From: Gammaproteobacteria bacterium | GTDB taxonomy: Bacteria; Pseudomonadota; Gammaproteobacteria; Porifericomitales; Porifericomitaceae | DNA length: 64,000 bases | Assembly (NCBI GenBank): GCA_014238615.1 | Contig: JABAAT010000038.1 | Span: 78,363 to 142,362 of the forward strand | Reading direction: 5' to 3' | Shown here: positions 6,341 through 37,452 of the stretch, one piece after another | How positions within the stretch are numbered: position 1 is the stretch's first letter | Layout: each line of letters opens with the position of its first letter | The notes under the pieces: model-generated | Told to the model about the DNA's origin: nothing | Databases searched by the model: none | What the model saw: the letters and a program-made list of their open reading frames with translations, nothing else | Program-made: the position numbers and the translations under genes

Positions 6341-7615
6341 TCAGCCCTGCTGGTAATGCATCAGCCCCATGGCTTCCATGTGCTTGACCAGGAGATCCTT
6401 GTAACAGGACCACCATTCGGGGATGCTGCGGAACTCCTCGATGCGCGCCCGTCCGTCACGCACGGTGACCACCGGCCAGTTGCCCACCAGGGCGTTGTCA
6501 ATGCCCCAGAGCTCCTCGCCCCACCAGGAGGCGTCGCCGAAGGCATGCGGCGCGCGGCCGCCCTGCTTCATGGCCTCCAACACCGCCAGGGGCTCCACCG
6601 AAGCGGCCTGCTCCGCCGCCGCCTTCCACAGGTCCATGATGGAAGCGTACTCCCAGGCCACCGCCGACCACTGTCCGGGGTGGCGCTCAACGAACTTCTC
6701 GTAGAAGTCCTTCGGCCGCTTGAAGTTGATGAAGTCCTGGCGCAGGGCCGGGTCGTCGAAGTCCGGGAACTGGAAGATGAAGCCCTCCACGAACTCCTTG
6801 CTGGTCTTCTCGATGACGTCCTGGTAATTGTCAAAGGTACAGGAGATGATCTTGCCCTTGAAGCCCTGGTGAAAGAGTTGCTCCGTGATCAGGTTGACGT
6901 AATCCGCGTAGCAGGTGTCCAGGCAGACGATGTCCGGCCCGGAAGCCAGCATGGAGGTCACGACGGGGGCAAAGTCGGTGGTCGACGGATCGAAGATGTT
7001 CTGATCCACCACGTCGATGCCGGCCGCCTCGAAGGCCGCCAGGTAGGTCGCCACCGAGGGCAGCCCCAGGGAGTCATTCTGGGCGCAGATCGCGGCCCGC
7101 TTCAACTCCGGGAAGTTCTGGGCCATCCATTCCACTCCGGTCACGTTGTAGATCGGATGCACCTCGCAGGGAGCAATGTGGTAGGGAGCGTCCGGCGACA
7201 GGTCACTGGGCAACAGCGTGGAAGTCAGCAGCTTGCGCCGGGTGGCGAAAGGCTGCACCGCCGGCCAGGTGTCGCCGCCGAGCATCATGACGAACTTGAC
7301 ATCATGCTCGCCGACCAGCTTCTTCATACCCTGCAGGGCCTTGTCGGGAAGGTATTCGTTGTCGTAAGAAACGAACTCCACCTTGTAGTTGTCGCCGCCG
7401 ATGCGCAAACCGCCGGCGCGGTTCACCTCCTCGGCCCAGATTTCGCAGCCCTACAGACCCGGCAGGCCCCAGGCCGCCACCTCACCGGTAAGAGGCGCCA
7501 AAAAGCCGATCCGCACGGTGCGCGAAGCGGCACGCGCGGCGCCCGGCAGGCCACCGCAAACCATGACGCCGCCGAGCGCGGCGGCGCGCAACAATTCTCT
7601 ACGTGTAATAGCCAT
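6341..7615 (-). pseudogene. Periplasmic substrate-binding protein of the HAAT (amide/urea/branched-chain) ABC transporter with a Tat signal peptide; interrupted by an in-frame TAG at 7451-7453
   Basis: ORF 7451..7648 (MAITRRELLRAAALGG...TVRIGFLAPLTGEVAAWGLPGL*) and ORF 6341..7426 are in the same frame. The hand-read junction is ...GLPGL-TAG-GCEIWAEEVNRAGGLRIGG. AGGAGG RBS 7 nt before the ATG at 7613-7615. A Tyr is expected at the stop position by homology. Confidence 0.6.
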
Positions 7616-7729: not shown

Positions 7730-8329
7730 TCAGGGGGTTTCCTCCTCCATGGGCCGCAGCTCCGCATAACGCCCGCGGAAATACAGCAGGGGCTCGGCGC
7801 GCGGCGCGTAGTGCACCACGCTGTCCACCTGTCCTACGAAAATGACATGGTCTCCTCCCTGGTAGGTGTAGTGCGTGCTGCAATCAAACACGGCCAATGA
7901 GTCCGGGAACCAGGGGCTGCCGTTCGGGGTTTGCCGCCATTCCGTGGTCGCCCATTTATCGCCCATGGGCACCGCGAAGCGCGTCGCCAGGTCGCGCTGT
8001 CGAGTGGACAGGACGCTGACCGCGAAATGCGCGGTGGAGAGGAAGGCTCGCAGGCTGTAGGCGCCCTTGTCCAGGCTGAACAACACCAGGGGCGGCTCAA
8101 GGGACACCGAACTGAAGGAATTCGCGGTGATGCCCAAGCGCTCCCCACGCTGCCCGCCGGCGGTGATGATGGTCACACCGGTGGCGAAATTGCCGAGAAC
8201 CCCACGCAGCTCCCCGCGGCTGAGCGGCGCCCGGGATTCCACAACGGGTTTTGACTCGGAGGATTCCGACACGATCTCCAGGGAGCTTCTTTCCGAGCGG
8301 CCGGCCGGGGAATGATCAGAGGCGGCCAT
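7730..8329 (-). CDS. NAD(P)H-dependent flavin reductase (HpaC/RutF-type, flavin_reduct domain)
   Basis: LRGVLGNFATGVTIITAGG...SFSSVSLEPPLVLFSL is typical of the small flavin reductases that partner two-component monooxygenases. Confidence 0.8.
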   Translation of the reverse strand: MAASDHSPAGRSERSSLEIVSESSESKPVVESRAPLSRGELRGVLGNFATGVTIITAGGQRGERLGITANSFSSVSLEPPLVLFSLDKGAYSLRAFLSTAHFAVSVLSTRQRDLATRFAVPMGDKWATTEWRQTPNGSPWFPDSLAVFDCSTHYTYQGGDHVIFVGQVDSVVHYAPRAEPLLYFRGRYAELRPMEEETP

Positions 8330-8331
8330 CG

Positions 8332-8660
8332 CTCAGGATTGCACCCGCTCTTTGCGCGGGTCGTAGAAGGGGCTCGGCACCACGCGCGCCGGGATGCGCT
8401 TCTGGTGACCGTCCAGCTTGCCCACCTCCACGGCGGCGCCCTCCGCGGCGATGCCGCGGCGCGGGATGCAGGATCTCGCGGGACGATGCGCCTTCACGGA
8501 TCCAGCACCGTGAGTCGGTCACCGGCCTGCAGTCCGAGCCGGATAGAGCCGCCGCCGTGGCCCTGGCAGCGCTCCCGCCCAGGCGGCAGGGCCGCCTGCC
8601 TTGACAGGGACGGCGTGGCCGGAGTGAGTACGGGGGATGCCGCCATTGGCAGGCCTTTAA
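8332..8660 (-). pseudogene. Collapsed remnant of a second tdm-like (DUF1989-GcvT) gene: ~57 N-terminal codons joined out of frame to ~40 C-terminal codons
   Basis: Bases 8332-8470 align to the 3' end of the intact gene at 14943-15075 (VEVGKLDGHQKRIPARVVP.PFYDPRKERV). Bases 8470-8660 align to its 5' end at 17150-17318 (MAxxxxLTPxxPxxSRxAxxPPGRERxQxxGGGSIxxGLQAGDRLTxLDP). Roughly 80-85% nucleotide identity, so this is not a recent copy. Confidence 0.6.
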
Positions 8661-10069
8661 GCCTTCCCGGAACCAGGTAGTGCCTTTTCGGACTCCGCCA
8701 CGAGGCGTTCGCCCAAGGCGCGTTTGGACTCCTTGTCAAGCTTTTTCAACTCGTTGTTCAGTACCCTTTCGTTGAGCGCCTGGTTCCAGTAGTCCAGCGA
8801 TTCGAAACCGAGCAGCACGGACTTGCCGACGAACTGGCGCAGCACTTCGTTGGTCGGTCCCATCACCCAGCCCGCCTTGCCGTCCCGCAGGTAGCGTTCA
8901 ATGCCCAAGGCCGGCTTGTAAGCGGTGCCGCCGCAGGCATGCAGCATCTTGTCCGAGACGTGGGCCACGTTCTTGGCGGCGGTGAACTTCACCTGCCACA
9001 TCCAGTGCAACAGGTCGGAGCGGGGCAGCGCCGAGACATCCCGGTGGATGGACCAATCGCAGTCACCGGTACAGCTGTCCAGGGCCTGGGCCATCATGAA
9101 AACCATGGCGCGCGAGGCGTTCGTGTCGATCAGCGCCTCCACGACGTAGTCCTGGATCGTCGGATAATCCGCCACCCGCATGCCCACATCAGCGTGTTTC
9201 TTGCGGGTGGTGTGCACCTTGGCGATATCAATGAGACCGAGTGAAATGCCGTTCCAACAGGAAGAAGACATGAGCAGGAAGAACGGATCCACCGCCTCGT
9301 CGTTGGAAACGGCGCCGTCACCCACGGGCCCCACGAGCCGGGCGGCCGGTATCTCGACCGCGTCGATCTGGATGGGGCCGGACTGGTTGCCGCGCAGGCC
9401 CAAACCGTCCCAGCTGGCCGGATCCGACTTGACCTCGTCGCCGAGAATCAGGAAGCAGGACAGGTTCGAATAATCGCCGCCGAAATCCGGGCTGGTGGTC
9501 TGTACGATGTACCAGTCCGCGAAACCGCCCGAAGTGGTCCAGGATGCCTTCTTATGAACCCGCCAGCCATGTTCGATACGCTCCGCCCGCGAGCTGACCG
9601 GGTACCAGAAGTGCGAGCCGGTCTCCGGATCGGAATAGGACAGGGTGCCGATCAGCACCTCCTTGTCCAGGCGCCCCATGAGCTCCTGGATCACCTGGTT
9701 GTCGTGATGACGCAGCAGGGCCGCGGCCACGGCGCCCGCGTGCATGGTATAGCACATGGCGGTGCTGGCACAGCCGTAGCGCGCGATGGTCTCCACCACC
9801 ATCGCCACACAGGCATGGTTCTCCCCCATGCCGCCCAACTCCTCCGGCACCAGCAGCCCCAGCACCCCGAGTTCGGCCAGCGCCTCAAAGTTCTTGCGCG
9901 GGTAAAGCAGCTTCTTGTCGCTCTCCACGGCGTTCTCGCGCAGAGTGGTGTGACACAGTTCGATCAGATCGGCCTGCAGGCGTTGCTGCTTGTCCGTCAG
10001 CACCCACTGCGGGTCATATTCATAACCCAACCCCCAAAAAGGTTCCGTACCCCATTTCTTGTTGCTCAT
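8657..10069 (-). CDS. Acyl-CoA-dehydrogenase-fold flavin-dependent oxygenase (group-D two-component monooxygenase-like: DszC/SfnB/IBAH family)
   Basis: ACAD N/M/C-domain signatures (LAELGVLGLLVPEELGGMGENH, ...GTLSYSDPETGSHFW..., ...YLRDGKAGWVMGPTNEVLRQF). Start taken at MSNKKWGT with a GGGGAG RBS. A flavin reductase lies 330 bp downstream in the same orientation. Confidence 0.75.
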   Translation of the reverse strand: MSNKKWGTEPFWGLGYEYDPQWVLTDKQQRLQADLIELCHTTLRENAVESDKKLLYPRKNFEALAELGVLGLLVPEELGGMGENHACVAMVVETIARYGCASTAMCYTMHAGAVAAALLRHHDNQVIQELMGRLDKEVLIGTLSYSDPETGSHFWYPVSSRAERIEHGWRVHKKASWTTSGGFADWYIVQTTSPDFGGDYSNLSCFLILGDEVKSDPASWDGLGLRGNQSGPIQIDAVEIPAARLVGPVGDGAVSNDEAVDPFFLLMSSSCWNGISLGLIDIAKVHTTRKKHADVGMRVADYPTIQDYVVEALIDTNASRAMVFMMAQALDSCTGDCDWSIHRDVSALPRSDLLHWMWQVKFTAAKNVAHVSDKMLHACGGTAYKPALGIERYLRDGKAGWVMGPTNEVLRQFVGKSVLLGFESLDYWNQALNERVLNNELKKLDKESKRALGERLVAESEKALPGSGKA

Positions 10070-10611
10070 TCGTCTTACTCCCCAGCTTTCAGCCCACTTC
10101 AGCGTACTGATGAAGTGGATGCGGGTGTGTTGATGTGAACCAGAACAGGCCAAGGTCATGTCTGCATCAGGGATTATCGCCGGATGCAGGTTGTCTTTCA
10201 AGGTACCTATCCAGCATACCTGCCATTTTTTAGGTGGATCATGCTATATCTTTATGGATAGAGCCGAGATCAGACCGCCGCTGGCGCCTCCCAGGCGCCC
10301 AGGATAGTGTCGCATCCGACCGGGGCGCTTCGAAAGCAGGAGCTTCTTATCCCCGCTTTCGGCCGGTGGTGTCTGTCCCTGGTGTGCGGCGTTTGGCCGA
10401 CCTGAAAGTCGGCGGGCACGTAGGCCAGGTCATCATTTTGCGTCAAGTCGGCGGCCAGGCGGCCGATGACGGCGCCGGCACGCGGCAACAGGGAGGTTTT
10501 CCTTCGCGGGATGCTCCAGTCCCATGCCCCGCTCCACCTCGTGGGGGCGCGGCACGCGCCCCTTAACTCTCGTTGACCTGATGATCAAGCCAGGCCACAA
10601 GTCAGCCTGGG

Positions 10612-12600
10612 TCAGGCCAGCCCCAATTCCTGCTTTCTGGGCAGCGCCCACCTGTTGATCAGATGGTCCATTGCAAGCCCCATAAAGGCGACACACAAGC
10701 CTAACACCAAGCCTTTACCCATATCGCTCTCGGAAAGCGCCTGCATGATTTCCTGTCCCAAATCCTGGGTTCCGATAAAGGCGCCGATAATCACCATGAA
10801 CAAAGCAAATATAACCGTTTGATTCACACCAAGCATAATATGTGGAAGCGCCAACGGCAGTTCGATCTTAAACAGCCTTTGTATCCTGCTCACACCCGAC
10901 ATCGTCGCCGCCTCCTGTAAACCCTGTGGAACACTGCGCAAACCCTCTATGGTGTAGCGCGTGGCTGGAATCGAGGCATAAATAATCACCGCGGTAAGCA
11001 CCGACACATCGTTGACCTGGAACAGCATGATCACGGGGATTAAATAGACGAAAGATGGAAAGGTCTGAAGAGTATCGCAAATCAACAGCGCGTACCTGGT
11101 CGTGAAGCTTCTGCGTGAGGCGATGATACCTATCGATAAACCAATGAACACAGAGATGAGCACCGAAAAACTGACCATGTAAGCGGTAATCATCGCTTTA
11201 TTCCACCAGCCGGTCAAGGCGATGAAGGCAAAGAAAGCGCCCACGATGAGCGCGGAGCGCACCCCGCCAAGGAACAGGCCGGCGCCCATCAGCAGGGCAA
11301 ACACCGCAACCATCGGCAGCGATGTATAAGCGTCCCGCATGGGAATTAATACTTCCACCAACAGGAAGGTTCGGAATTGCTGTAACCCGGAATACCAATT
11401 CCTCACAACCCAATCCACCATGAAATCCCAAAAAGGAGCAGTGGTGATCGCGACGGAGCGGGGAATCTTATAAGCATAAGGAAAAAACTTTGAGACGATG
11501 ATGCTGAGCAGCGTCAATCCGACAATGGCAAGCCAATATTTATAGCGTACATAAAAAGGCAGATCGGCGCGATAATCAGGCTGTTTGTGCGCCCAGGCCA
11601 GGGACAGCCTGTCAAGCACAATGGCGATCAGGACAATGGAAATACCAAGCTCCAGGGCCTTCCCAATCTTCAGGCTTCCCAACATCACCAGCAATGTATA
11701 ACCCAATCCGGAAGCGCCGATAAACGAAGCGATCACCACCATGGCCAGGCATTGCATGATCACCTGGTTCACACCAATCATGATGTCGTGCCGGGCCGAG
11801 GGTATCTGCACCTGGGTCAACAGCTGCAGGTTATTGCACCCACTCATCCTGCCGGATTCGAGCACCTCCACGGACACTTTCTTCAATCCCAGCAAAGTCA
11901 AGCGAATCATCGGTGGAGTCGCAAAAATAATCGTCGCAATCGCACCGGCGTTATCACCGATACCAAAGAAAACCAATACCGGAATCAGGTAGGAAAAATG
12001 GGGAAGCGATTGGGCGACATTCAACAAGGGAGCCAGCGTCAGCTCCACGACCTTGTACCTGTAAGCCAACACCCCCAGGGATAAGCCCAGAACCAGGGCA
12101 ATAGGCACCGCAACGAACACCAGGGATAAAGTACGCATGGAATCCTGCCATTGCCCGAAGACGGCCAGGTAGATCACGCTAAGGCCCGCAAGCAACGATA
12201 ATCTCCAGCCCTGCAGGGCGTAACCTATCACAAAGGCAATTCCCGCCACGGCGGTCCACGGCAGCGCCGGCAGGGCGAATCCCTTCCGCCCTCCCAGAAG
12301 AATGTTACGCACTACGTCAATACTCGACTGCAGCGCATCCGACACACCCCTGCTTATCAACATCACCGCCGTTGTCTCTTCCGCAAGATCTTCTTCCACG
12401 TCGATGACTGTAATCTTCCAGAATTCATCCTGCAGGAAGAACAAAGCCTGGTTCAGCCACTCGGCTATCGGCAATGTGACGGAGGCGGGCCACGTGAGCA
12501 GCCAACCCGGCATCACACCCTTCCCTGCCACCAATACGGCGAATACGATAAAGAGAAGGGCAACCTGTATTGACTTACGGTCTGTGGGCAGGTGTACCAT
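10612..12600 (-). CDS. Glycine-betaine/TMAO-type ABC transporter permease with two fused ProW-like domains (TmoW-like)
   Basis: 662-aa polytopic protein with two BPD_transp_1 cores (EAA-like loops). Confidence 0.8.
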   Translation of the reverse strand: MVHLPTDRKSIQVALLFIVFAVLVAGKGVMPGWLLTWPASVTLPIAEWLNQALFFLQDEFWKITVIDVEEDLAEETTAVMLISRGVSDALQSSIDVVRNILLGGRKGFALPALPWTAVAGIAFVIGYALQGWRLSLLAGLSVIYLAVFGQWQDSMRTLSLVFVAVPIALVLGLSLGVLAYRYKVVELTLAPLLNVAQSLPHFSYLIPVLVFFGIGDNAGAIATIIFATPPMIRLTLLGLKKVSVEVLESGRMSGCNNLQLLTQVQIPSARHDIMIGVNQVIMQCLAMVVIASFIGASGLGYTLLVMLGSLKIGKALELGISIVLIAIVLDRLSLAWAHKQPDYRADLPFYVRYKYWLAIVGLTLLSIIVSKFFPYAYKIPRSVAITTAPFWDFMVDWVVRNWYSGLQQFRTFLLVEVLIPMRDAYTSLPMVAVFALLMGAGLFLGGVRSALIVGAFFAFIALTGWWNKAMITAYMVSFSVLISVFIGLSIGIIASRRSFTTRYALLICDTLQTFPSFVYLIPVIMLFQVNDVSVLTAVIIYASIPATRYTIEGLRSVPQGLQEAATMSGVSRIQRLFKIELPLALPHIMLGVNQTVIFALFMVIIGAFIGTQDLGQEIMQALSESDMGKGLVLGLCVAFMGLAMDHLINRWALPRKQELGLA

Positions 12601-12634
12601 GGGGTTGCCTGTCGGGGACTAAGCGCCGGACCCC

Positions 12635-13672
12635 TTAGCTGGGCTTCCCGAATAAAATATGCAGTATCCTCTTGCAGTTTAAAACACCGATAATTTCCCC
12701 CTGCCCATCAACCACGGCGACCGGTTTGGTTGCAGACAACACCCGCTCGGCAACCTGCTCAATGATGACATCGGCTGCAACGGTGAATTCACTCAACTCC
12801 TGCCCTTCCTGCTTCGGCTCCATCACGGACGCCGTGGTCAGGACCCGCTCGCGCGGGACTTCGTTGGTAAATTTTTTCACATAGTCGGTCACCGGATTGA
12901 GTACAATATCAACCGGGGCGCCGATTTGCTCAACTCTGCCGTGGTACATAATGGCGATTCTATCCGCCAATCGCAGGGCCTCATCAAAATCATGGGTAAT
13001 AAACACGATGGTCTTGTTCAGCAGGGACTGCAGGCGCAGAAATTCGTCCTGCATTTCACGGCGAATCAGCGGATCCAAGGCTGAGAAAGGCTCATCCAAA
13101 AACCAGATATCGGGTTCCACCGCCAGCGATCGGGCGATGCCTACACGCTGCTGCTGCCCTCCCGACAACTCTCGCGGGAAACTCTTTTCGCGACCCACTA
13201 AGCCCACCAATTCGATCATTTCCCGCGCACGCCCGTGGCTGTCAGCGGTCTTTACACCTTTGACCTGCAGGGGAAAAGCAATATTTTCCAGAACGGTTTT
13301 ATGCGGGAGTAAGGCGAAATTCTGGAACACCATCCCCATCTTATGACGGCGAAGCTCTATCAGATCCTTGTTGCGCATCTTCAACAAGTCTTGACCGTCG
13401 ATGAGGATTTCCCCCGCGGTCGCGTCAGTCAGGCGGGAAATACAACGTACCAAGGTCGATTTACCCGAGCCGGACAGACCCATCACCACCAGCATTTCTC
13501 CCTGGTGTACCTCCAGGGAAACATTATTCACGCCAATAATGCAGCCTGCCTTACTGAACTCTTCCTCATCTACCCGGCCCTTGCTTTCTTCCAGCAGTTT
13601 CCGGGCGTTCTCCCCAAAAATTTTGTACACGGAACGGCATTCTATAACCGCCTGTGCCTTCTCTTCCGCCAT
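12635..13672 (-). CDS. Glycine-betaine/TMAO-type ABC transporter ATP-binding protein (ProV/TmoV-like)
   Basis: GLSGSGKST, LSGGQQQRVGIARSL and IWFLDEPFSALD motifs, followed by a C-terminal CBS-like tail. Confidence 0.85.
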   Translation of the reverse strand: MAEEKAQAVIECRSVYKIFGENARKLLEESKGRVDEEEFSKAGCIIGVNNVSLEVHQGEMLVVMGLSGSGKSTLVRCISRLTDATAGEILIDGQDLLKMRNKDLIELRRHKMGMVFQNFALLPHKTVLENIAFPLQVKGVKTADSHGRAREMIELVGLVGREKSFPRELSGGQQQRVGIARSLAVEPDIWFLDEPFSALDPLIRREMQDEFLRLQSLLNKTIVFITHDFDEALRLADRIAIMYHGRVEQIGAPVDIVLNPVTDYVKKFTNEVPRERVLTTASVMEPKQEGQELSEFTVAADVIIEQVAERVLSATKPVAVVDGQGEIIGVLNCKRILHILFGKPS

Positions 13673-13770
13673 GCGCGCTTAACCTCTAGAGAGGATCCAA
13701 TTACCAAAGGCACTTGCCGCGGCAAACGCGCGCGGCAAGTACCCCTGGTAACGGATAGTTTTTCGTCTGA

Positions 13771-14715
13771 TTAATCTTTAAGCCATGGTTTCCAGGCAGC
13801 TTCATTGTCTGCAAGCCACTTATCCGCAGCCTCTTCGTGCTCTAAACCGTCGATATCCACCAACTTCGCCATGGTCGCGATTTGCACCTTGTCGAAATCA
13901 ATGCGCGTCAGCAGTTTGTAGGCTGCCGGCCACTTTTTCGGCATTTGATAATAGGCCGCCTTCTTCAACCAACCCGCCGGCGGGCTGCCGCAAACACCAT
14001 CACCGCCATCTTCCTTCCTGCAACCTTCATAATACTCCGGGAACTCGATAAAGTCACCCCCGTAAAGCGCATCGGTGAAATTAGGCGACCAGTTGAACAG
14101 TACGATGGGCTTGTTGTTTTTCTTGGCGGCTTCCAATTCCGCCCATAAGGCAGCCGCGGAACCGGCGAACACAGCCTTATAATCCATCTTTAAGGCTTCA
14201 ATGCGGTCCTTGGTCTCCTGCCCGTGCCAATCAGCCGGACCATCCAGGTAACGGCCCAAAGGCGCGGTTTCCGGGCTGCTGAATGTCTCCGCACAGGCGT
14301 TGAGCGCCTCCCAGCTGGGCAATCCCGGACAAAACTCGGTCACGTAAGCAGGATACCACCATTCTTCCCGGGTTTTTGCCGTATGGGTGCCCGCATCAAT
14401 GATGCCGCCCTTGTCCAATGCCTCGTTAAAGGATTTTCCAAAGGTACTTTGCCAAACTTCCATAGAGACGGTGACATCGCCACGGCGAATCGATTCATAC
14501 ACCGCCTGGCTGTCCGCCGGTTTGTACTCAACATTATCACCGAGTTTCTCAAACAACTTACCGACAACGTAAGACATGACGATCTGACTGGACCAGTTGT
14601 GCGTCGGGAGGATAATCGGATCCTTGGAATCCGCAGCCACCGCCCATCCTGACAGACCAGCCAGCAGCATACTGACAAGCGCCACCGGCAATAGTTTTCT
14701 AAGCATGAATTTCAT
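13771..14715 (-). CDS. OpuAC-family periplasmic substrate-binding protein (glycine betaine/choline/TMAO-binding, TmoX-like)
   Basis: Signal peptide MKFMLRKLLPVALVSMLLAGLSGWAVA, then an OpuAC-like fold sequence. First gene of the transporter operon adjacent to the tdm-like gene. Confidence 0.8.
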   Translation of the reverse strand: MKFMLRKLLPVALVSMLLAGLSGWAVAADSKDPIILPTHNWSSQIVMSYVVGKLFEKLGDNVEYKPADSQAVYESIRRGDVTVSMEVWQSTFGKSFNEALDKGGIIDAGTHTAKTREEWWYPAYVTEFCPGLPSWEALNACAETFSSPETAPLGRYLDGPADWHGQETKDRIEALKMDYKAVFAGSAAALWAELEAAKKNNKPIVLFNWSPNFTDALYGGDFIEFPEYYEGCRKEDGGDGVCGSPPAGWLKKAAYYQMPKKWPAAYKLLTRIDFDKVQIATMAKLVDIDGLEHEEAADKWLADNEAAWKPWLKD

Positions 14716-14942
14716 AATTCAGATACTCCCTAAAAATGACCTGCAAAGCCCTTCCTAGATAAGGTCCTTGCTACAGTGATAGCTTGCGCCATGAACCCGG
14801 TACACCGCCCGCTACAGGCGACGCATCGGGATTTTCTTATCGCGCGGGACACTCCGTATAGCCGTATAGCACCGCGCCCTTGAAAATACGAAAAATTCCG
14901 GCCGGGATGTCGAACAGGAATGGGGCGGAGGCAGTCACCGCG

Positions 14943-17318
14943 TCAAGCCCGCACCCGTTCCTTGCGTGGGTCGTAGAAGGGGATCGGCACCACGCGCGCC
15001 GGAATGCGCTTCTGGTGACCATCCAGCTTACCCACCTCCACGGCAGCACCCTCCTCGGCGGCACTGACATCCATGCGGCATAAGGCGATATTGCGGCGCA
15101 GGACAGGCGAGCGCACGGCGCTGGTCACCACCCCTGTCTGGGCACGACCCTGGTGCACGCAGTCACCGTGCCCGGCCGCTTCGTTGCCCTCCAGTTCCAG
15201 TCCTACCAAGCGTCGCTGCGGGTGCGCCTTGCGCTTTTCCAGGGCCGCCCGGCCCACGAAATCGTCCTGCTTGCCGCGCAGCGGCACGCAAAAGCCGATG
15301 CCGGCCTCAAAAGGATCGGTTTGATCGCAGAATTCGTAGCCGGCGAAGACCAGGCCGGCCTCAATCCGCAGCATATCCAGGGCCTCCAGGCCCAGGGGCG
15401 CCAACCCCAGGGGCTGTCCGGCCTTCCAAAGCGCGTCCCAGACTTCAACAGCGGCGTCCGGATGACACCAAAGTTCATAACCCAGCTCACCCGTATAGCC
15501 GGTACGCGAAATCATCAGGGGAACACCCTTGAGATCCCCCAGGCGACCGATCGTAAAACGGAACCACTGCAGTTCCTCCAGGGTCGGTTGCGCCGGGGGC
15601 GTCCAGATCAGTTCGCGCAGCAATTCACGCGAGCGCGGCCCCTGCACGGCGATATTGTGGAGCTGATCCGTGGAGGATTTGACCCAAACCCGGTATTTCT
15701 TTTCCTTGGCCTGCTTGCGCAACCAGTCGCCGCCGTATTCCTCACCGCAGATCCAGCGAAAGTTATCGGCTCCAAGTCGGAATAAAGTACCGTCATCCAA
15801 CATGCCGCCGCTCGGGTAACACATGGCCGAGTAAACTACCTGCCCCACCGCCAGGCGCCGCACGTCGCGGGTGATCGACCACTGCATCAGCGCCTCCGCA
15901 TCCGGACCGAACACCTCAAATTTGCGCAACGGGGAAAGATCCATGACCGCAACGCGCTCCCGGCAGGCATGATACTCCTCGATGGTGCCGTATTCCTGGT
16001 AGGAAGTCGGGAGCCAATACCCCCGGTACTCAGTAAAACGCCGCGTCAGCGCGGAACTGCGGGGGTGAAAAGCCGTTTCGCGGGTCATTCGGGTCTCCGA
16101 GTCGGGGTGCAGACGGAAAGCAACGGCCTTGCTGAACATATGCCGTGAAGGATAGACTCGCACCTGCACATCGGTGGGATTCCAGCCATTCGCCGGATCA
16201 ATGTCGTCCGGGCAGGCCGAGGAAGAGCAGACCAAATCGGTCAGGGCGCGCAGCAACACGTAGTCGCCCGGACGGGACCAGGATTCATCCAGGTAAATAC
16301 TATTTGAATCATCAATACCGGTGTTGTAGAAAAAATTCACGGCCGGCCAGGCAGGGCGTGCCCGCACACCGTAATCCCGCAAGGCCGCGTTGAAGTTATC
16401 CGAACAGTTCGGGTGTCCGAAATAGCCACGTTCCTCGTAAAACCTGGCATAGCAGGCCAGGCCAAAGGTGTCGTGCCGGCCGCAGGTGTCACGCACCACC
16501 TCCAGCAAGGGGTTTAGATCCTGATCGTAGAACTTGGAGTACAGGCCGGGCTGCGGACAGGTAAAGCCCATCAGGGAGCGCGTGGCAGTGGCATCCAGGC
16601 TGTTCTCCCGGCCCGCCTCCAAGGGCGCGTGTGCGAAGGCCAGGAAGTCTGAACATTGGTGACCGGCGATATCCATCACCTGGATGTATTCTCCGGCACG
16701 CACCAGGTAGGCGTGCGCGGTACGCGCCTGGATACGCAGATCCAGGCGCGCTTCAGCCAAGGGCTCAGGCAGAGACTCAAGCGGGTTCGGAACCTCAATC
16801 GGATGCTCCCGATCCACGAAAGCGATCAATTCCGTGGCGGGCCGATGGCCGGCCACGGCGCCCTCTATCGGCATCGCACCGCCCACCGACACCAGGATGC
16901 AGTTGCAGGCCACCGCCGCGCGCAATTCCCGGCGCAATCCGGGCTCGGAGTCAGGCGCGAAGAGGCGCACGCCGCGCAGGTGTCCCCGATCGGCCACGGT
17001 CGCCTGGAGACGCTTGCGCAAACGCGCGGCGTTCGGATCCGCCGCCAACTGCAAGAGCGCCTCGCGTGCGGGTGGCAGATCGGAGGCATTCAACAGATTC
17101 GCGTCACTTTTCCCCGTCTCATCAAACACCAGGATCTCACAAGGCTGTGCGCCTTCCGGGTCCAGCAACGTAAGCCGGTCACCCGCCTGCAGACCGATCC
17201 AAATCGAGCCGCCGCCGGGGACCTGGTAGCGCTCCCGCCCGGGCGGCGGGGTCGCCAGCCTCGACAAGAACGGGGTGGCCGGGGGAACCGTCGGAGTCAG
17301 TGACAGGGCTACCGCCAT
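14943..17318 (-). CDS. tdm: DUF1989-GcvT fusion protein, trimethylamine N-oxide demethylase (Tdm)-like
   Basis: 791 aa. The N-terminal ~400 aa resemble the DUF1989/urea-carboxylase-associated family. The C-terminal ~380 aa form an aminomethyltransferase (GcvT) fold (RERVAVMDLSPLRKFEVFGPDA...GYTGELGYELW...). This is the architecture of characterised Tdm, next to a betaine-type transporter. Confidence 0.65.
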   Translation of the reverse strand: MAVALSLTPTVPPATPFLSRLATPPPGRERYQVPGGGSIWIGLQAGDRLTLLDPEGAQPCEILVFDETGKSDANLLNASDLPPAREALLQLAADPNAARLRKRLQATVADRGHLRGVRLFAPDSEPGLRRELRAAVACNCILVSVGGAMPIEGAVAGHRPATELIAFVDREHPIEVPNPLESLPEPLAEARLDLRIQARTAHAYLVRAGEYIQVMDIAGHQCSDFLAFAHAPLEAGRENSLDATATRSLMGFTCPQPGLYSKFYDQDLNPLLEVVRDTCGRHDTFGLACYARFYEERGYFGHPNCSDNFNAALRDYGVRARPAWPAVNFFYNTGIDDSNSIYLDESWSRPGDYVLLRALTDLVCSSSACPDDIDPANGWNPTDVQVRVYPSRHMFSKAVAFRLHPDSETRMTRETAFHPRSSALTRRFTEYRGYWLPTSYQEYGTIEEYHACRERVAVMDLSPLRKFEVFGPDAEALMQWSITRDVRRLAVGQVVYSAMCYPSGGMLDDGTLFRLGADNFRWICGEEYGGDWLRKQAKEKKYRVWVKSSTDQLHNIAVQGPRSRELLRELIWTPPAQPTLEELQWFRFTIGRLGDLKGVPLMISRTGYTGELGYELWCHPDAAVEVWDALWKAGQPLGLAPLGLEALDMLRIEAGLVFAGYEFCDQTDPFEAGIGFCVPLRGKQDDFVGRAALEKRKAHPQRRLVGLELEGNEAAGHGDCVHQGRAQTGVVTSAVRSPVLRRNIALCRMDVSAAEEGAAVEVGKLDGHQKRIPARVVPIPFYDPRKERVRA

Positions 17319-17479
17319 CCGCCTACCCTATGCGCCTTACCGAGGCCAGGCACCCGCGCTTCCCCGTCTTCCCCCACGGGCACTCGCCCTAGGACAAACC
17401 ACGTTTTCATGCTGCAAATCTTCTCCGCTTTGATCTATCAACCGTAAACACCACGGGGCGATGGAAGAACGGCATACCG

Positions 17480-17660
17480 ATACCATCCCACCGTAAAGAA
17501 TTATCACTGTATCCGTCCTGTCCCGCAATCTAAATCTAGGGATAACTTGAAGTATTTAGTTATACTTACTTCCTTTAGTACAATGACTATCTATCCTTTA
17601 GAGATAGTTCACAAAGCCGCCATCGCACGGAATCCTCCCAGCCTTCACCGGAAAGCGGCT
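17480..17660. promoter_or_regulatory. AT-rich (~35% GC) intergenic island upstream of the tdm-like operon, with repeated TCCTTTAG motifs
   Basis: tacttcctttagtacaatgactatctatcctttagagatagttcac. The two TCCTTTAG copies are ~21 bp apart, and a CTATC...GATAG palindrome is present. Sits between the soxG-like stop and the tdm-like start. Confidence 0.35.
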
Positions 17661-17667
17661 ATATGAA

Positions 17668-18444
17668 CTATTTCCGGGCTCCTTTTTCCCCGAACGCCTG
17701 TGGGGCCTCCTCCCACGCACCCAGAAAAGCGTCACAGCCGACCGGAACGCCGTCAAACTCGAGCGCGGCGTCCCCGATACACTCCCACAGGTATTCGGCC
17801 GCGGCGCTGTCCATCAGCAGGTGGTAGGCGGGCAGTGCCGGCGCGCCGGCACACACGCAATCCTCCCGCAGCAGCAGGACATTCATGCGCGCCATGACCG
17901 TCTGCGCCACCCGCAGATTGGGGAAACGATGCGTCCGCAGATCCAGCGCGCAGAGCTTGGCAAACATGGCCGGCGCCTGGGTGCCGCCGATCCGCAGCCA
18001 GGCCGAAAGCGACTGGCGCGGCACCGGGAAGACCCCGGACGGCCGCTCTTTTTCCCAGTCCGCCGCACAACGCTGACATGCCTCGGCCGCGGCCCGCGCC
18101 GCTCCCAGCAACAGTGCCTCGTCACCCATACGCGCCGCCAGCAGGCCGTCCCGGGAACACCTGGTTTCGCCGCTCTCGCCCACACCCAGACCCCGTGCGC
18201 GTAACCAGGAAAGCGCCTCCCAGCCCTTGTAACCAAGCCGCGGCAAGGGGCTGAAGTCGGCCCAGGCCAGGCACCGCAAACGCTCCTCCTCCTCCGGCGA
18301 CGCACCGCAGTCCGCGACAACCACCGTGTCCGCAAAAGCTCGGCAACGGGCGCCGGCTGCTTCAAGGCGCCGATACAGCGGGCTGCGCGCAACGCCATCG
18401 GTCGCCCGGGGAGCAGCGTTCTTACTCTCTTTCACCATCTTCAA
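17668..18444 (-). CDS. Sarcosine oxidase gamma-subunit family protein (SoxG/MgdD-like)
   Basis: Last gene of the B-D-A-G operon; 4-bp overlap with the alpha subunit. Size and position fit SoxG. Confidence 0.65.
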   Translation of the reverse strand: MKMVKESKNAAPRATDGVARSPLYRRLEAAGARCRAFADTVVVADCGASPEEEERLRCLAWADFSPLPRLGYKGWEALSWLRARGLGVGESGETRCSRDGLLAARMGDEALLLGAARAAAEACQRCAADWEKERPSGVFPVPRQSLSAWLRIGGTQAPAMFAKLCALDLRTHRFPNLRVAQTVMARMNVLLLREDCVCAGAPALPAYHLLMDSAAAEYLWECIGDAALEFDGVPVGCDAFLGAWEEAPQAFGEKGARK

Positions 18445-21425
18445 ACTTCCTGGCGCTGGTTTCCCGCATCGTAGAAGGGGGCAGCCACCACGCGCGCCTG
18501 CAAGATGAGCTTTTCATCCTTGCTTTTGCCGTGCGGCGCCTGTCCCTTGATATGCAGCACTTCGCCGACCTTGGAGTCGCTCGGTGCGTAAGCCAGGCCG
18601 ATGGTTTTGCGCAGGGCCGGCGACCAGGCCACCGAGGTAACATGACCAACGATGGCGCCGTTGCGCAGCAACAGGCTGGATTCCCGAAGCAGCGTTCCCA
18701 AATCCGGATCATCCCCCGCCTCAAAAGCGACCAGGCGGCGATCGGACAACTGGTGCCGAGCGCGCAACTCCAGGGAGCGTCCACCAACAAAGAACGGTTT
18801 TTTGCCGGCTACCGCCCAGTCCATCTGCAGCTCTTGAGGGGTACTCATGGCATCGGTGTCCTGGCCGATGATCACGTGTCCTTTTTCCAGGCGCAGCACG
18901 CGCTGCGCCTCGATGCCCACCGGCCGCACGCCGAACTCTACGCCGCCGCGCAGCAAGGCGTCCCAGAGCGCCTCACCGTGGGTTGAAGGCACATGGATTT
19001 CGTAGCCCAGTTCGCCCACGAAGCCGATCCGCAGGAGCCGCGCCGGGAGACCCGCGACACGCCCGCAACGCACTCCCAGGTAAGGAAAGTCCGAAGCTTC
19101 AAGCCGCAGGTCTGCCGCACATACGCTCCGCAACACCTCGCGCGCCCGGGGGCCGGACAGGCTGACCCCGGCGTAGGCGGCAGTGACGTTGCAGATATCC
19201 ACGCGCAAACGCCACTGCGCGTTCCACCACAGCATGTTGCGGTAAACATTCTCCACCCCACCGGTGGTCGCGGTCACGTAGAAATGATCCTCGGCGAGGC
19301 GGCAGGCCACCCCATCATCCGTCACGACCCCCGCCTCGTTGGTCATGAGCACGTAGCGTACCCGGCCCACCGGTTGCTTCTTGTAAGCAAACGTGTAGAT
19401 CCGGTTCAGGAATTCGGCCGCGTCCGGCCCACGCACTTCCAGGCCGCCCAAGGTGGAGACATCGATCATGCCGACCCCATTGCGCACCGCCAGCACTTCC
19501 TCCTGAATGCACTGCTCCCGCGCGGCCTCTCCCGGTGAATAATAAGCTGGTCGCCACCACAGGCCGGCCGCCAACATGCGCGCCCCGGCCTCCAGGTGCC
19601 GGTGATGCATGGCAGTGCGCCGCTCCGGTTCAAAGCAACGCCCGGCGAGCACCCCCAGTTTTTCGGCAGCCACGGGCGGCCGCGCCGTGGTCACACCCAC
19701 CCGCGCCGGCTCGCTCCCGGTGGCGCGCGCCACCAGGCGCGCCGTCGCCAGCGCCGAGTGGCGCCCCTGGGAAGGCCCCATGCCCACCGTGGAATAGCGC
19801 TTGACCAACTCCAGCTCCGCGTAGCCGTCGGCGCAGGCGTTCAGGATATCGGCGATCTGCAGATCCTCGTCGCGATCCACGAATTCCTTGCCGCGCGCAT
19901 GCTGGAAGATGGGCCAGACCGGGGACGCGGCGCCGCTCTCCTCCGGGGACGGGAAATCCTGCGCCGCTTCGCCGTCCCCCCCATTCCCGGCAAGCGCGGC
20001 GACGGCGGCGGCGCCGACCGCCCGACCGTCCGCCAGCACCTCTTCCAGGCTCCTGAAACCGCGCACGGCGCCGGCCAGGCGTACCCGTTCCGGCAAACCG
20101 CTGATCCGAAATCCCTCCAGGTCCCCGGCATGGCTCAGGCGCGCGCCGGCCTGCAAGGGCAGCTGGTAGGTCGGCATGCGGCCCACACTCATGCACAACA
20201 GGTCGCATTCCAGGCGCACTTTAGAGTCCTCGCAGGAACCCCCGGAGATGATGTGAGCGAGCCGCACGGCCGCCAGATGACCGCCGCGCCCGGCCTCGGC
20301 TTCCAACACGCAGCTGCCGGAAAACACTCCCAGGCCACGCCGCACCACCTCCTGGAAACAGTCGCCCTCCGGGGCCGGACGCATATCGACGACCGCGCTC
20401 ACTTCCACCCCGGCTTCCAGCAGATCCAAGGCCACCTCGTAGCCATCCGCGGCGGCCGTGAGCACCACGGCGCGCCGCCCGGGCCGTACCCCGTAGAGAC
20501 GCAGCAGGCGCTGCGCGGCCGAGCCCAGGATCACACCGGGCAGGTCATTGTTGCGGAACACGGCGGGCTGCTCCATGACGCCGGTGGCCAGGATCAGTTC
20601 GCGTGCGCGCAGCTTGTAGAGCCGTCGGCCTTGCACCAGGGGCAGCCAGTTATCGGCGAACCAAGCGTTGCAGAGCGTACCGGAAAGGAACTCAATATTC
20701 GGTGTCTCCGCCACCTCGCGCAACAATTCATCGCGCCGCCCGGACTCGCCGTCCGGCACGTCGCGGGCATAATTCAGCATCCCACCGGGCCGCTCCTCCT
20801 GCTCCACCAACAGCACCTCGCACCCGCCGCGAGCCGCTTCCAGGGCCGCCGCCATACCGGCCGCACCGGCCCCGATCACGGCCACATCACAGAAACGGTA
20901 CATTTTGTCGTAATAAGCCGGAGGCGCATCGCGCCGCACCCGCCCAAGACCGGTCATGGCGCGCACGATGGGTTCCCAGAAATACTGCCACGCAAGGCGC
21001 GGCCGATACATGGCCTTATAGTAGAAACCGACCGGCAGGAAGCGTGAGAAAATACCGAGCAACGCCGATGGATCCCAGCGCAGGCCGAAGGGACCGCAGT
21101 TCTGAGCGCGTATCTCCATGCCATCGCGTAAAGCTTCCATATCAGCCTGAACATTTGCTTCGCCGTTCACCCGCACCAAGGTGTCAGCCTCCAGGCCGGC
21201 CATGGAAAGCGGGCCGCGCGGCCGGTGGTACTTGAAGGAACGCGACAACATCCAGACGCCGTTGGCGAGCAGGGCGCTGGCGATGCTATCCCCCTCGAGG
21301 CCGCTGTACGCGCGACCTTCATAGCGAAACCGCAGCGGCCGATCGCGCCGCACACACAGTCCCGCGGGAGCCGGCAGACGCCAAGGGGCGTCCGCGGCCA
21401 GCGGCGTTGCGGCCGCCTTGCTCAT
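18441..21425 (-). CDS. Sarcosine oxidase alpha-subunit family protein (SoxA/MgdC-like) with FAD/NAD-binding and GcvT-like domains
   Basis: 994 aa. VAVIGAGAAGMAAALEAARGG Rossmann motif, and a C-terminal aminomethyltransferase fold (GELGYEIHVP). Confidence 0.85.
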   Translation of the reverse strand: MSKAAATPLAADAPWRLPAPAGLCVRRDRPLRFRYEGRAYSGLEGDSIASALLANGVWMLSRSFKYHRPRGPLSMAGLEADTLVRVNGEANVQADMEALRDGMEIRAQNCGPFGLRWDPSALLGIFSRFLPVGFYYKAMYRPRLAWQYFWEPIVRAMTGLGRVRRDAPPAYYDKMYRFCDVAVIGAGAAGMAAALEAARGGCEVLLVEQEERPGGMLNYARDVPDGESGRRDELLREVAETPNIEFLSGTLCNAWFADNWLPLVQGRRLYKLRARELILATGVMEQPAVFRNNDLPGVILGSAAQRLLRLYGVRPGRRAVVLTAAADGYEVALDLLEAGVEVSAVVDMRPAPEGDCFQEVVRRGLGVFSGSCVLEAEAGRGGHLAAVRLAHIISGGSCEDSKVRLECDLLCMSVGRMPTYQLPLQAGARLSHAGDLEGFRISGLPERVRLAGAVRGFRSLEEVLADGRAVGAAAVAALAGNGGDGEAAQDFPSPEESGAASPVWPIFQHARGKEFVDRDEDLQIADILNACADGYAELELVKRYSTVGMGPSQGRHSALATARLVARATGSEPARVGVTTARPPVAAEKLGVLAGRCFEPERRTAMHHRHLEAGARMLAAGLWWRPAYYSPGEAAREQCIQEEVLAVRNGVGMIDVSTLGGLEVRGPDAAEFLNRIYTFAYKKQPVGRVRYVLMTNEAGVVTDDGVACRLAEDHFYVTATTGGVENVYRNMLWWNAQWRLRVDICNVTAAYAGVSLSGPRAREVLRSVCAADLRLEASDFPYLGVRCGRVAGLPARLLRIGFVGELGYEIHVPSTHGEALWDALLRGGVEFGVRPVGIEAQRVLRLEKGHVIIGQDTDAMSTPQELQMDWAVAGKKPFFVGGRSLELRARHQLSDRRLVAFEAGDDPDLGTLLRESSLLLRNGAIVGHVTSVAWSPALRKTIGLAYAPSDSKVGEVLHIKGQAPHGKSKDEKLILQARVVAAPFYDAGNQRQEV

Positions 21426-23921: not shown

Positions 23922-24641
23922 TTAGAAGCTGCGTGCCGCCGAGAACACTACCCGGGAACTATATATAGGACTGCTGTCTTCATCCGTATCGTGGTAGCGC
24001 AAGTCCAAATCAAAACTCAGGATCGATTTGCTGACACCCAGTTCCCAGTGCAGATAGTTGAAATTTTCACTTCCCGGGGCACCCGTTTCCTCAATATATT
24101 GATAGCCAGCGCCGAAATCCACTCCGAAGTCATTCGGCAGGCTGAAAGACACGGAAGGCTTCAGGTAATGCGCCGTGGTGTTGTCCGTACCATTCCCCCA
24201 ACGCGGGGAATAGGCATAGAGCAGGTTCAGGGTGGGCGCGGCCGCCCCCTCGAAAGTATGCGAGGCATTAGCCCATATCTCAAAGATGTTATAGCCACTG
24301 TTCTCGGGGAAATAATAGAAGATGGGCTGTATCCAGAAATCGATGCCTCCAACGGAGTTCCCATAGCCAGCGTAAAAGTCCAGTTCAACGTCAAAACCGT
24401 TAAGACTCGTGCCCCAGACTCCGGCAAACAGGTAACCTCCGGCGTTCAGGTCATTAGCCCAGTCGAAGCTACCCTGGATCGCCGGGTTTTCGTTTGAAAA
24501 CGAAGTGCCACGGAAAATATAGTCGGTGGTCAGGGTCAGCGTGTTGCTAAAGTTTTCCTCGCTGAGGGCGCCTTCGGCGAGTGCCGGCTTCCCTCCCAGA
24601 CTGACAGTCAGGATGCAGAGTGCGAATAAGACTTTCTTCAT
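23922..24641 (-). CDS. Outer-membrane beta-barrel protein of the Gcw_chp/TorF porin-like family
   Basis: Signal peptide MKKVLFALCILTVSLGGKPALA, alternating aromatic/hydrophobic beta-strand pattern and C-terminal ...VVFSAARSF, characteristic of this ~240-aa proteobacterial family. Confidence 0.65.
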   Translation of the reverse strand: MKKVLFALCILTVSLGGKPALAEGALSEENFSNTLTLTTDYIFRGTSFSNENPAIQGSFDWANDLNAGGYLFAGVWGTSLNGFDVELDFYAGYGNSVGGIDFWIQPIFYYFPENSGYNIFEIWANASHTFEGAAAPTLNLLYAYSPRWGNGTDNTTAHYLKPSVSFSLPNDFGVDFGAGYQYIEETGAPGSENFNYLHWELGVSKSILSFDLDLRYHDTDEDSSPIYSSRVVFSAARSF

Positions 24642-26377: not shown

Positions 26378-27178
26378 CTAGAAACTACGTGACACTGTAA
26401 AAACCACCCGCCTCTTAAACAAGTGGAGGTCCGGGCGAGTATCGCCCCAGTAATCCTTTACAAGGGGAGAGTCCAGATCCACATCCATATCGTGCATGCG
26501 CACGTCCCAGTTGAAGCCAAGGAAAGAGTTGCTGAGACCAACCGTCCAATTCCAGAAGGCCTGGGGTGATGATTGTGCATGCTTTCCTTCCACGTACTGG
26601 TAGCCGGCAGTGAAGTTCAAGCCGAAGCCCCGCGGCAAGTTAAAGGCTATGGAAGGCTCAAAGTAGTGCGCTATACCCCAATTGGTATAACTCCAATCCG
26701 GGGAAAAGGAGTAGAACATGCCGACAGTCGGTGAACCTGGTCCCTCGATGCCGCGCGAAACATTAAAATAAATCTCCCCGGCGTCTGTCTCACCAGCCCT
26801 GTCATGTGCGTTAGGGTAACTATACCAGATCGGCAGTATCGAGTAATTAAACGCGCCGATCGAATTCGCATAACCGATGTATGGGTAGATCGTGGAATGA
26901 TAATTGCTGTAGCCGGAAAGGCTTGCGCCGCCGATGCCGGCGAACACGGTACCACCGTCTCCCAGCGAGTGACTCCAGTCAAAAGTTCCTGCAACAGACG
27001 GGTCTCGATCTGAATACGAGACGCCACGAAACACGTAGTCACTGCGCATGGTAAACGTGGCACTGAAATTCTCCTTGGCGAACATACCACCTTCACCAAA
27101 AACATCACCGGCGAAGGCTGACCTTCCTGCCAGGCTAACGGCTAATACACACAGCACGATTAATACTCTTTGCATCAT
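26378..27178 (-). CDS. Outer-membrane beta-barrel protein of the Gcw_chp/TorF porin-like family (paralog of 23922..24641)
   Basis: Signal peptide MMQRVLIVLCVLAVSLAGRSAFA. Collinear similarity to the first porin (TxRSDYVFRGVS...FAGxxGxSL...GYAN...FSxxRSF). Confidence 0.65.
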   Translation of the reverse strand: MMQRVLIVLCVLAVSLAGRSAFAGDVFGEGGMFAKENFSATFTMRSDYVFRGVSYSDRDPSVAGTFDWSHSLGDGGTVFAGIGGASLSGYSNYHSTIYPYIGYANSIGAFNYSILPIWYSYPNAHDRAGETDAGEIYFNVSRGIEGPGSPTVGMFYSFSPDWSYTNWGIAHYFEPSIAFNLPRGFGLNFTAGYQYVEGKHAQSSPQAFWNWTVGLSNSFLGFNWDVRMHDMDVDLDSPLVKDYWGDTRPDLHLFKRRVVFTVSRSF

Positions 27179-35543: not shown

Positions 35544-35622
35544 ACGGGACACCGGTTTTCCCCATCCGACAGCCGGCCCTTCACACGGTGCCGGGTGACC
35601 AGGCTTTTAAGGAGTCATTATC

Positions 35623-37409: not shown

Positions 37410-37452
37410 GGCGAGTACCCCGACCAACTCCCCCACCCTAAGGAACCTTAAC

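Follow-up and report, generated by a model that had tools for sequence, protein, structure and literature searches.

A collapsed second tdm gene among the scars of a doubled segment in a methylated-amine island of a gammaproteobacterium

In a 64,000-nucleotide stretch of contig JABAAT010000038.1 (positions 78,363 to 142,362 of the forward strand, assembly GCA_014238615.1) from a gammaproteobacterium of the Porifericomitaceae, hereafter the window, about 0.3 kb between an ACAD-like gene and a flavin reductase gene resembles the two ends, joined together, of the gene for trimethylamine N-oxide demethylase (tdm) that stands intact elsewhere in the same window. The window is a methylated-amine island with soxB/A/G-like genes, tdm, tmoXWV-like transporter genes and an ammonium transporter gene, and the methylated-amine and Tdm pathway has been described in PMC5520151. 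What is this composite of two gene ends, and how did the genome come to have two copies of tdm in the first place? The account that we consider probable is one of complementary loss, in which the remnant is a non-functional tdm relic and one scar of a doubled segment.

The original prediction held that positions 8332-8660 align in two blocks to both ends of the intact gene at about 80–85% identity, with start and stop codons kept, an out-of-frame junction and about 2 kb of interior lost, and this description proved accurate. When 8200-8800 was queried against 14800-17500 with BLASTN, two blocks aligned on the same strand, 8319-8450 with 14928-15060 (115 of 133 positions, 86%, E value 1e-41) and 8469-8622 with 17130-17282 (126 of 154 positions, 82%, one gap, E value 2e-39); they constitute the 3' and the 5' block, respectively. 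Across the whole 64-kb window the two blocks are the sole non-self matches to the intact tdm (E values 2e-39 and 3e-37), and a repeat search of the window finds both independently, as repeats D1 and D2. Read from the minus strand, the ATG-to-TGA extent is 8646..8333, which places the predicted boundaries within a few bases of the true ones; both terminal codons are present, the junction is shifted by +1, and 2.03-2.07 kb is gone. The intact gene and the parts of the remnant are as follows.

14943..17318, minus strand: intact tdm, encoding trimethylamine N-oxide demethylase of 791 amino acids; the surviving copy.
8333..8646, minus strand: second-tdm remnant, 314 bases from the ATG at 8646-8644 to the native stop TGA at 8335-8333.
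8469..8646, minus strand: 5' block of the remnant, corresponding to codons 1-63 of the intact gene, with four codons (TVPP) absent and one T inserted.
8494..8497, minus strand: the sequence GTGA, in which TGA at 8496-8494 closes a first open reading frame (ORF1, 50 amino acids) and the overlapping GTG at 8497-8495 opens a second (ORF2, 54 amino acids).
8451..8468, minus strand: deletion junction of 18 nucleotides, where the frame is shifted by +1.
8319..8450, minus strand: 3' block of the remnant, containing the last ~38 tdm codons, the stop and 14 nucleotides beyond, at 86% identity.

The damage goes further than originally predicted. A T at 8496, inserted relative to the intact copy, causes a frameshift and the premature TGA at 8496-8494, and small in-frame codon losses are found in addition. 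Two readings of the junction bases 8468..8451 are possible: they are filler, or they represent codons 739-745 in diverged form, after which 8-9 codons were lost in frame. If they are read as coding, the remnant keeps the last ~53 tdm codons (~739-791), and the absent interior corresponds to positions 17129..~15105 of the intact copy (2025 nucleotides, residues 64-738) plus the 8-9 codons; if all 18 are counted as filler, it corresponds to 17129..15061 (2069 nucleotides). With codon 63 jumping to codon ~739, the remnant is left without DUF1989 and without GCV_T, and GCV_T_C is cut down to its last ~45 residues, from which the family-invariant Leu746 and Arg748 are gone. A Tdm is read in one uninterrupted frame, and this frame is broken twice in the remnant, by the premature TGA and by the shift at the junction. 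With both catalytic domains gone, a frameshift and premature termination, we predict that the remnant cannot be a demethylase. Its ATG sits 10 nucleotides after the TAA of the ACAD-like gene and its stop 3 nucleotides before the ATG of the flavin reductase gene (flr), and it is best described as a dead, collapsed tdm pseudogene in a slot with the order ACAD-like / tdm / flavin reductase. As for pseudogenes in general, the closest homologue is a functional gene of the same genome, and disabling lesions are present.

The product of the intact gene scores 1205 bits on the NCBIfam equivalog NF053776, where the cutoff is 1100, and has the Pfam architecture DUF1989 (residues ~195-363, the metal-dependent half that cleaves TMAO), GCV_T (~418-676, the folate-binding domain) and GCV_T_C (702-783). 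With a score above the cutoff and all three domains in place, we assign it as a bona fide Tdm. The conceptual peptides of the remnant share 39 of 59 N-terminal and 34 of 38 C-terminal residues with this protein, and the next best values, among 56 Tdm from 80 related GTDB loci, are 21 of 37 and 29 of 38. A comparison with the 119 closest Tdm out of 5.8 billion proteins, taken from about 8000 that were scored, gave a combined score of 365 for the intact copy and 263 for the next best, such that 175 Tdm were compared in all. In addition, the hypervariable first ~25 residues align between the two copies in the window only, and not with other Tdm. Because both the scores of the remnant and these variable residues favour the intact copy, the two copies are, as judged by sequence comparison, each other's closest known relatives. 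In the search of 5.8 billion proteins no database Tdm was more than 66% identical to the intact Tdm over the full length; the nearest (P0143, 66%) is encoded in locus L084. A search with the frameshift-corrected remnant peptide returned 62 candidates, 18 of them at E<=1e-5, all short and restricted to C-terminal GcvT domains, and the eight matches that were inspected are ordinary C-terminal Tdm/GcvT fragments.

Two observations touch on other possible tdm relics. A third copy of a repeat designated D3, at 18454-18498, was considered as another relic and is read instead as a conserved GcvT C-terminal barrel motif in the SoxA-like C-terminus. Among the related loci, the Tdm matches in L030, L037 and L082 each fall into two pieces that lie in different reading frames, and represent either frameshifted tdm genes or assembly errors.

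An intact tdm at exactly the position of the remnant is a common arrangement elsewhere, in line with the suggestion that related genomes should be compared at this position. The ACAD-like protein has counterparts of 73-80% identity in 80 loci from Alphaproteobacteria, Acidobacteriota, Latescibacterota, Gemmatimonadota and other phyla. A Tdm is encoded within the flanks in 62 of the 80 loci, and both Tdm and flavin reductase in 48; a tight one-strand order ACAD > Tdm > Flr occurs in 12, and Tdm lies between ACAD and Flr, in any orientation, in 17.

The remnant is not the only scar in this part of the window. As regards an old duplication followed by internal deletion, the original prediction was right about a collapsed and disabled second copy, and too narrow in confining the event to a single gene, since a segment of at least 3.8 kb is present twice. 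The parts of this segment, and the genes next to it, are listed here.

18441..21425, minus strand: soxA-like gene, intact; the surviving copy.
17668..18444, minus strand: p258 (soxG-like) gene, intact; the surviving copy.
17327..17393, minus strand: ACAD-like 3'-end vestige, 67 nucleotides directly upstream of the intact tdm, covering the last ~22 codons with ~68% identity to 8654-8718.
10612..14715, minus strand: tmoXWV-like ABC transporter genes (OpuAC binding protein, ATPase, fused permease), between the two copies.
10325..10503, minus strand: soxA-like 3' vestige, residues ~913-978 of 994, ~70% nucleotide identity to 18507-18685, with an internal frameshift.
10276..10335, minus strand: p258 (soxG-like) 3'-end vestige, residues ~229-250 of 258.
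8657..10069, minus strand: ACAD-like gene, intact, 470 amino acids as called in public assemblies.
7730..8329, minus strand: flavin reductase gene (flr), intact, of HpaC/RutF type.
Copy 1, ~18685..14928: 3' part of soxA, p258 and tdm intact; ACAD-like gene reduced to a stub.
Copy 2, ~10503..8319: ACAD-like gene intact, followed by the intact flr; soxA, p258 and tdm reduced to stubs.

In searches of the whole window, 10340-10466 matches 18507-18635 in the soxA-like gene (70%, E value 4.5e-14), and 10287-10328 matches 17709-17750 in the p258 gene (79%, E value 4.5e-5). These two vestiges are joined to each other after a loss of ~750 nucleotides, lie within the 542-nucleotide gap between the permease and ACAD-like genes, and were confirmed at the protein level. 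The ACAD vestige scores 18, compared with 11.9±1.7 in dinucleotide shuffles, where 9 of 1000 reached this level, and its match ranks second of 8481 window positions. It translates to an end reading VPGLGKA, as compared with the LPGSGKA that immediately precedes the stop in the intact ACAD-like protein, and this lineage-specific PGxGKA tail occurs in none of the 40 homologues that were listed. The six homologous blocks, from soxA, p258, ACAD and tdm, are collinear, on the same strand and in direct orientation. The segment soxA3'-p258-ACAD-tdm is thus present twice in the form of diverged copies, and each doubled gene is intact in exactly one of them. The cluster order that results is sox genes, tdm, tmoXWV, ACAD, flr.

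The scars differ in how far they have diverged, with 68-79% identity to their partners for the soxA, p258 and ACAD stubs, and 82-86% for the two tdm blocks. The differences in the tdm 3' block fall on codon positions 1, 2 and 3 in the numbers 0, 2 and 8 (8 synonymous and 2 non-synonymous; binomial P = 0.003 for at least 8 of 10 differences at third positions), and the corresponding numbers for the 5' block are 10, 10 and 14. The pattern in the 3' block reads as a signature of divergence under purifying selection. From this third-position bias it follows that the second tdm would have been functional for most of the divergence and that the deletion is comparatively late, which refines the predicted order of duplication and then deletion by dating the latter to a late stage in the divergence of the copies. 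Changes in the remnant that are unseen in 48 functional Tdm include Q58S, L740P, the loss of Leu746 and Arg748, and R790Q. At sites that differ, the vestiges are GC-richer than their functional partners, by 26:12 for tdm, 16:14 for soxA, 5:2 for p258 and 9:3 for ACAD (56:31 in total), which points to a rise in GC wherever DNA of this genome is no longer constrained, toward its third-position composition of ~0.8. The GC-richness of the remnant also gave rise to the idea of a donor with lower GC for the intact tdm; this was rejected, as all four vestiges, distributed over both copies, are GC-richer, a pattern that fits neutral drift. In the sequence of events that we propose, the redundancy of a segment present in two copies would have allowed each gene to lose one of its copies by deletion. 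Early losses would have been the truncated soxA, p258 and the ACAD-like gene of copy 1, and the second tdm would have remained under purifying selection much longer, before one large internal deletion, small lesions and some drift.

How the segment came to be doubled is connected with the tmoXWV-like genes, as these form a 4.3-kb cassette that separates the two copies. The G+C content at third codon positions (GC3) of the cassette is 0.62-0.66, as against 0.79±0.06 for other large genes in the window. In L084, at 12710-16795, the P0143 Tdm occurs in the same tdm-OpuAC-ABC-permease cassette, with identities to the window of 66% for Tdm and 61, 68 and 56% for the transporter proteins, and this unrelated genome of 67% GC shows the same low transporter GC3, ~0.15 below that of neighbouring genes. 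The four genes tdm-tmoXWV form a conserved cassette, and the contrast in composition persists with it. An initial interpretation of the low tmoXWV GC as a sign of recent foreign origin was withdrawn, given that L084 shows the same contrast. The linkage of tdm to tmoXWV appears older than the divergence of the two copies in the window, and for this reason the doubling and the placing of the cassette between the copies were rather likely one event. Such an event could have been the tandem duplication of a unit with tdm-tmoXWV at its end; alternatively, DNA from a close relative could have been integrated additively, with one-sided homology as the anchor. Instead of the old duplication originally proposed, related DNA may have come in together with the cassette. 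A tandem duplication with a later, unrelated insertion at its junction is less parsimonious and less likely.

Several points weigh against complementary loss after segment doubling. The ACAD vestige is short and is slightly outscored at one unrelated window position (18.5 as against 18). The AT-rich spacers 17394-17667 and 10070-10286, upstream of the intact tdm and of the ACAD-like gene, are not detectably homologous (score 9.5, with 9.9±1.4 in shuffles), and the similarity that continues past the tdm stop into flr is weak, its level being reached by 68 of 2000 shuffles. A relative that carries sox genes (L077) has open reading frames between p258 and ACAD that match gmaS-mgsABC in size, an assignment made by size only; because sox-carrying relatives have open reading frames in between, the proposed ancestral adjacency of p258 and ACAD rests on the scars in the window only. 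No sister genome was found in any collection searched, and neither two intact tdm genes nor a contiguous soxA-p258-ACAD-tdm-flr order was observed there; in cluster look-ups covering 15 billion proteins, ORF1, ORF2, Tdm and ACAD were all singletons. Furthermore, gene conversion between the tdm copies could mimic a late loss.

The other explanations of the locus differ in which of these observations they account for. It is very unlikely, in our view, that the duplication involved tdm alone, with the ACAD-flr slot as its target or its source, that one copy then lost its interior and that the other similarities arose by chance. Such an event would agree with the two tdm blocks being by far the strongest signal, with the brevity of the ACAD-tail match, equalled at one unrelated locus, and with the weak downstream extension, but it does not predict the soxA and p258 vestiges. 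These are adjacent to each other and in the correct strand and order relative to ACAD and the tdm remnant, and the PGxGKA tail is common only to the ACAD-like protein of this genome and the stretch upstream of the intact tdm. Still more remote is an origin in the assembly, in which reads of the intact tdm would have been mis-joined or collapsed, or a metagenome-assembled genome would combine two strains as a chimera. The sequence does derive from a metagenome assembly, and the window matches the ENA assembly ERZ23490334 (a 213 kb scaffold) with one mismatch in 18.3 kb, that is, from the same population. However, reads of the intact gene cannot have yielded the remnant, because the identity is only 82-86%, with indels, which excludes a collapsed repeat. 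Logan contig L002 (SRR11455659), built separately with a different pipeline, spans the junction from 8593 into flr at 100% identity, and the neighbourhood of the remnant is reported for 7 further contigs. Moreover, the remnant fits the flanking genes to the base, and the other scars are too decayed for chimeric joins. The original view that the remnant is no assembly artefact of the intact copy is therefore upheld.

A possible, though not a probable, alternative is that the intact tdm came together with tmoXWV from another organism and made the resident tdm redundant. The donor would be unrelated in the strong form of this explanation, and a close relative with the order soxA-p258-ACAD-tdm in the weak form, which is kept within the complementary-loss account; our estimate applies to the two forms jointly. 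A foreign origin is consistent with the nearest Tdm relative being found in the same cassette with congruent identities (66/61/68/56%), with the transporter genes standing exactly between the two copies, and with the synonymous-biased 3' block, which fits a divergence of the two genes as functional orthologues. The strong form is at odds with the mutual similarity of the remnant and the intact copy, which far exceeds that of either to any of the 175 Tdm, and with the flanks of the intact copy, which carry stubs of this genome's own gene order. GC3 is also even along the intact tdm, with no breakpoint, and the low GC of tmoXWV is not diagnostic. Another question is whether the remnant is kept by selection, either as a translational bridge from ACAD to flr or for an ORF2 peptide with the C-terminal strands of the GcvT barrel, which we find doubtful. 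The spacing of stop and start codons can be read directly from the sequence, public gene callers place exactly ORF1 (50 amino acids) and ORF2 (54 amino acids) on the remnant, first- and second-position changes are almost lacking in the 3' block, and no strong Shine-Dalgarno sequence precedes the flr ATG. A relay in which the ORF1 start 10 nucleotides after ACAD, the GTGA overlap and the end of ORF2 3 nucleotides before the flr ATG keep translation coupled is equally doubtful; if true, the deletion would have been tolerated since both gene ends stayed, and the insertion at 8496 would have restored the relay after an out-of-frame deletion. Yet a recent deletion that spared the gene ends explains the pattern equally well, ORF2 is open mainly by way of the native frame, such that only ~15 extra codons must be stop-free, and neither small frame has homologues (both fall in singleton clusters). 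The 5' block and the codons close to the junction show unconstrained changes, flr may really start at the GTG at 8272, and scans in and next to the remnant found no promoter, terminator, Rfam family or tRNA, nor is its RNA fold remarkable (z = -1.5). Most likely the remnant does nothing, and its ends may have escaped deletion as they abut the ACAD stop and the flr start.

The neighbouring genes of the slot deserve separate mention. The trio of ACAD-like protein, Tdm and HpaC-type flavin reductase is co-localised in most of the 80 loci, which span at least five phyla. The ACAD-like protein is below every NCBIfam cutoff, with weak matches to the two-component monooxygenases SfnB, DszC and HsaA, and no close solved structure was found for it. 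Together with the flavin reductase it is a candidate two-component amine monooxygenase of uncharacterised chemistry. A search with the flavin reductase returned nothing above 61% identity, with the next match at 60%, and the nearest homologue (P0002, in L083) sits in an unrelated gene context. Its homologues align only from residue ~40, which is the reason to consider the GTG at 8272 as the start. Literature searches gave no report of tdm pseudogenes and none of the ACAD/Flr/Tdm trio, and this conserved trio may hold more biological interest than the remnant itself. Downstream of flr, at 6341-7615 on the minus strand, lies a gene for a liv-type periplasmic binding protein with a Tat-like signal peptide, a syntenic partner of the ACAD-like gene in alphaproteobacterial relatives. 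It has an in-frame TAG at 7453-7451 where homologues have Tyr or Asn (motif WGLPGL[Y/N]GCEIWAE), and is probably a nonsense pseudogene. In a Terriglobia genome (L016), a fragment at 8759-8947 similar to residues 4-66 of the ACAD-like protein (73%) lies ~1 kb upstream of an intact ACAD-like gene, and may be a comparable relic in another lineage.

As for the rest of the island, the soxB/A/G-like genes probably encode N-methylglutamate dehydrogenase, and gmaS-like and mgsABC-like genes are located at 34068-38841; neither an FMO-type tmm nor dmmDABC was found in the window. The 274 nucleotides at 17394-17667, which separate p258 from the ACAD stub, have 44% GC in a window of 62.5% GC, and show neither a match in Rfam nor a consensus promoter. 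At 23922-24641 and 26378-27178 on the minus strand are two paralogous Gcw_chp (PF09694) genes of markedly low GC (52-53%), with a GC3 of 0.59-0.64.

The remnant and the three other stubs record steps of operon rearrangement that are usually erased, with a segment present twice and one copy of each gene then lost, and these scars explain the position of tdm upstream of the transporter and ACAD-like genes in the island. For annotation, the 50- and 54-amino-acid frames should be labelled as tdm fragments, not as hypothetical proteins. The remnant is in itself a routine, ordinary pseudogene, though an unusually legible one, and segment doubling with complementary loss is a known kind of event.

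Compared with Tdm of the Methylocella silvestris Msil_3603 / Ruegeria pomeroyi SPO1562 type, as captured by NF053776, the intact copy shares the domain architecture and scores above the cutoff, whereas the remnant keeps the start, the first 63 codons, the last ~53 codons and the stop, and is without residues ~64-738. Pseudogenes and remnants of duplicated genes occur in bacteria, for example in the reductive genomes of Rickettsia and Mycobacterium leprae. The tdm remnant resembles these in having a functional copy in the genome, multiple lesions, an internal deletion and a drift to neutral composition, and differs from them in lying inside a tightly packed intact operon with both gene ends kept, in a genome that is not obviously reductive. 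Homology-facilitated illegitimate recombination and Campbell-type single crossover allow additive integration of foreign DNA by one-sided homology. In the present case such an integration would yield the layout of homologous segment, new genes and homologous segment, and is as such a mechanistic candidate only; no donor, recombination junction motif or mobile-element gene was found. Tandem duplication with random loss is the classic explanation for rearranged animal mitochondrial genomes. The segment in the window is similar in that two direct multi-gene copies occur, each gene is kept once, the order is new and the stubs are visible. It differs in that the copies are split by a 4.3-kb cassette, and in that the setting is a bacterial chromosome, where the doubling may have arisen in place or through imported DNA.

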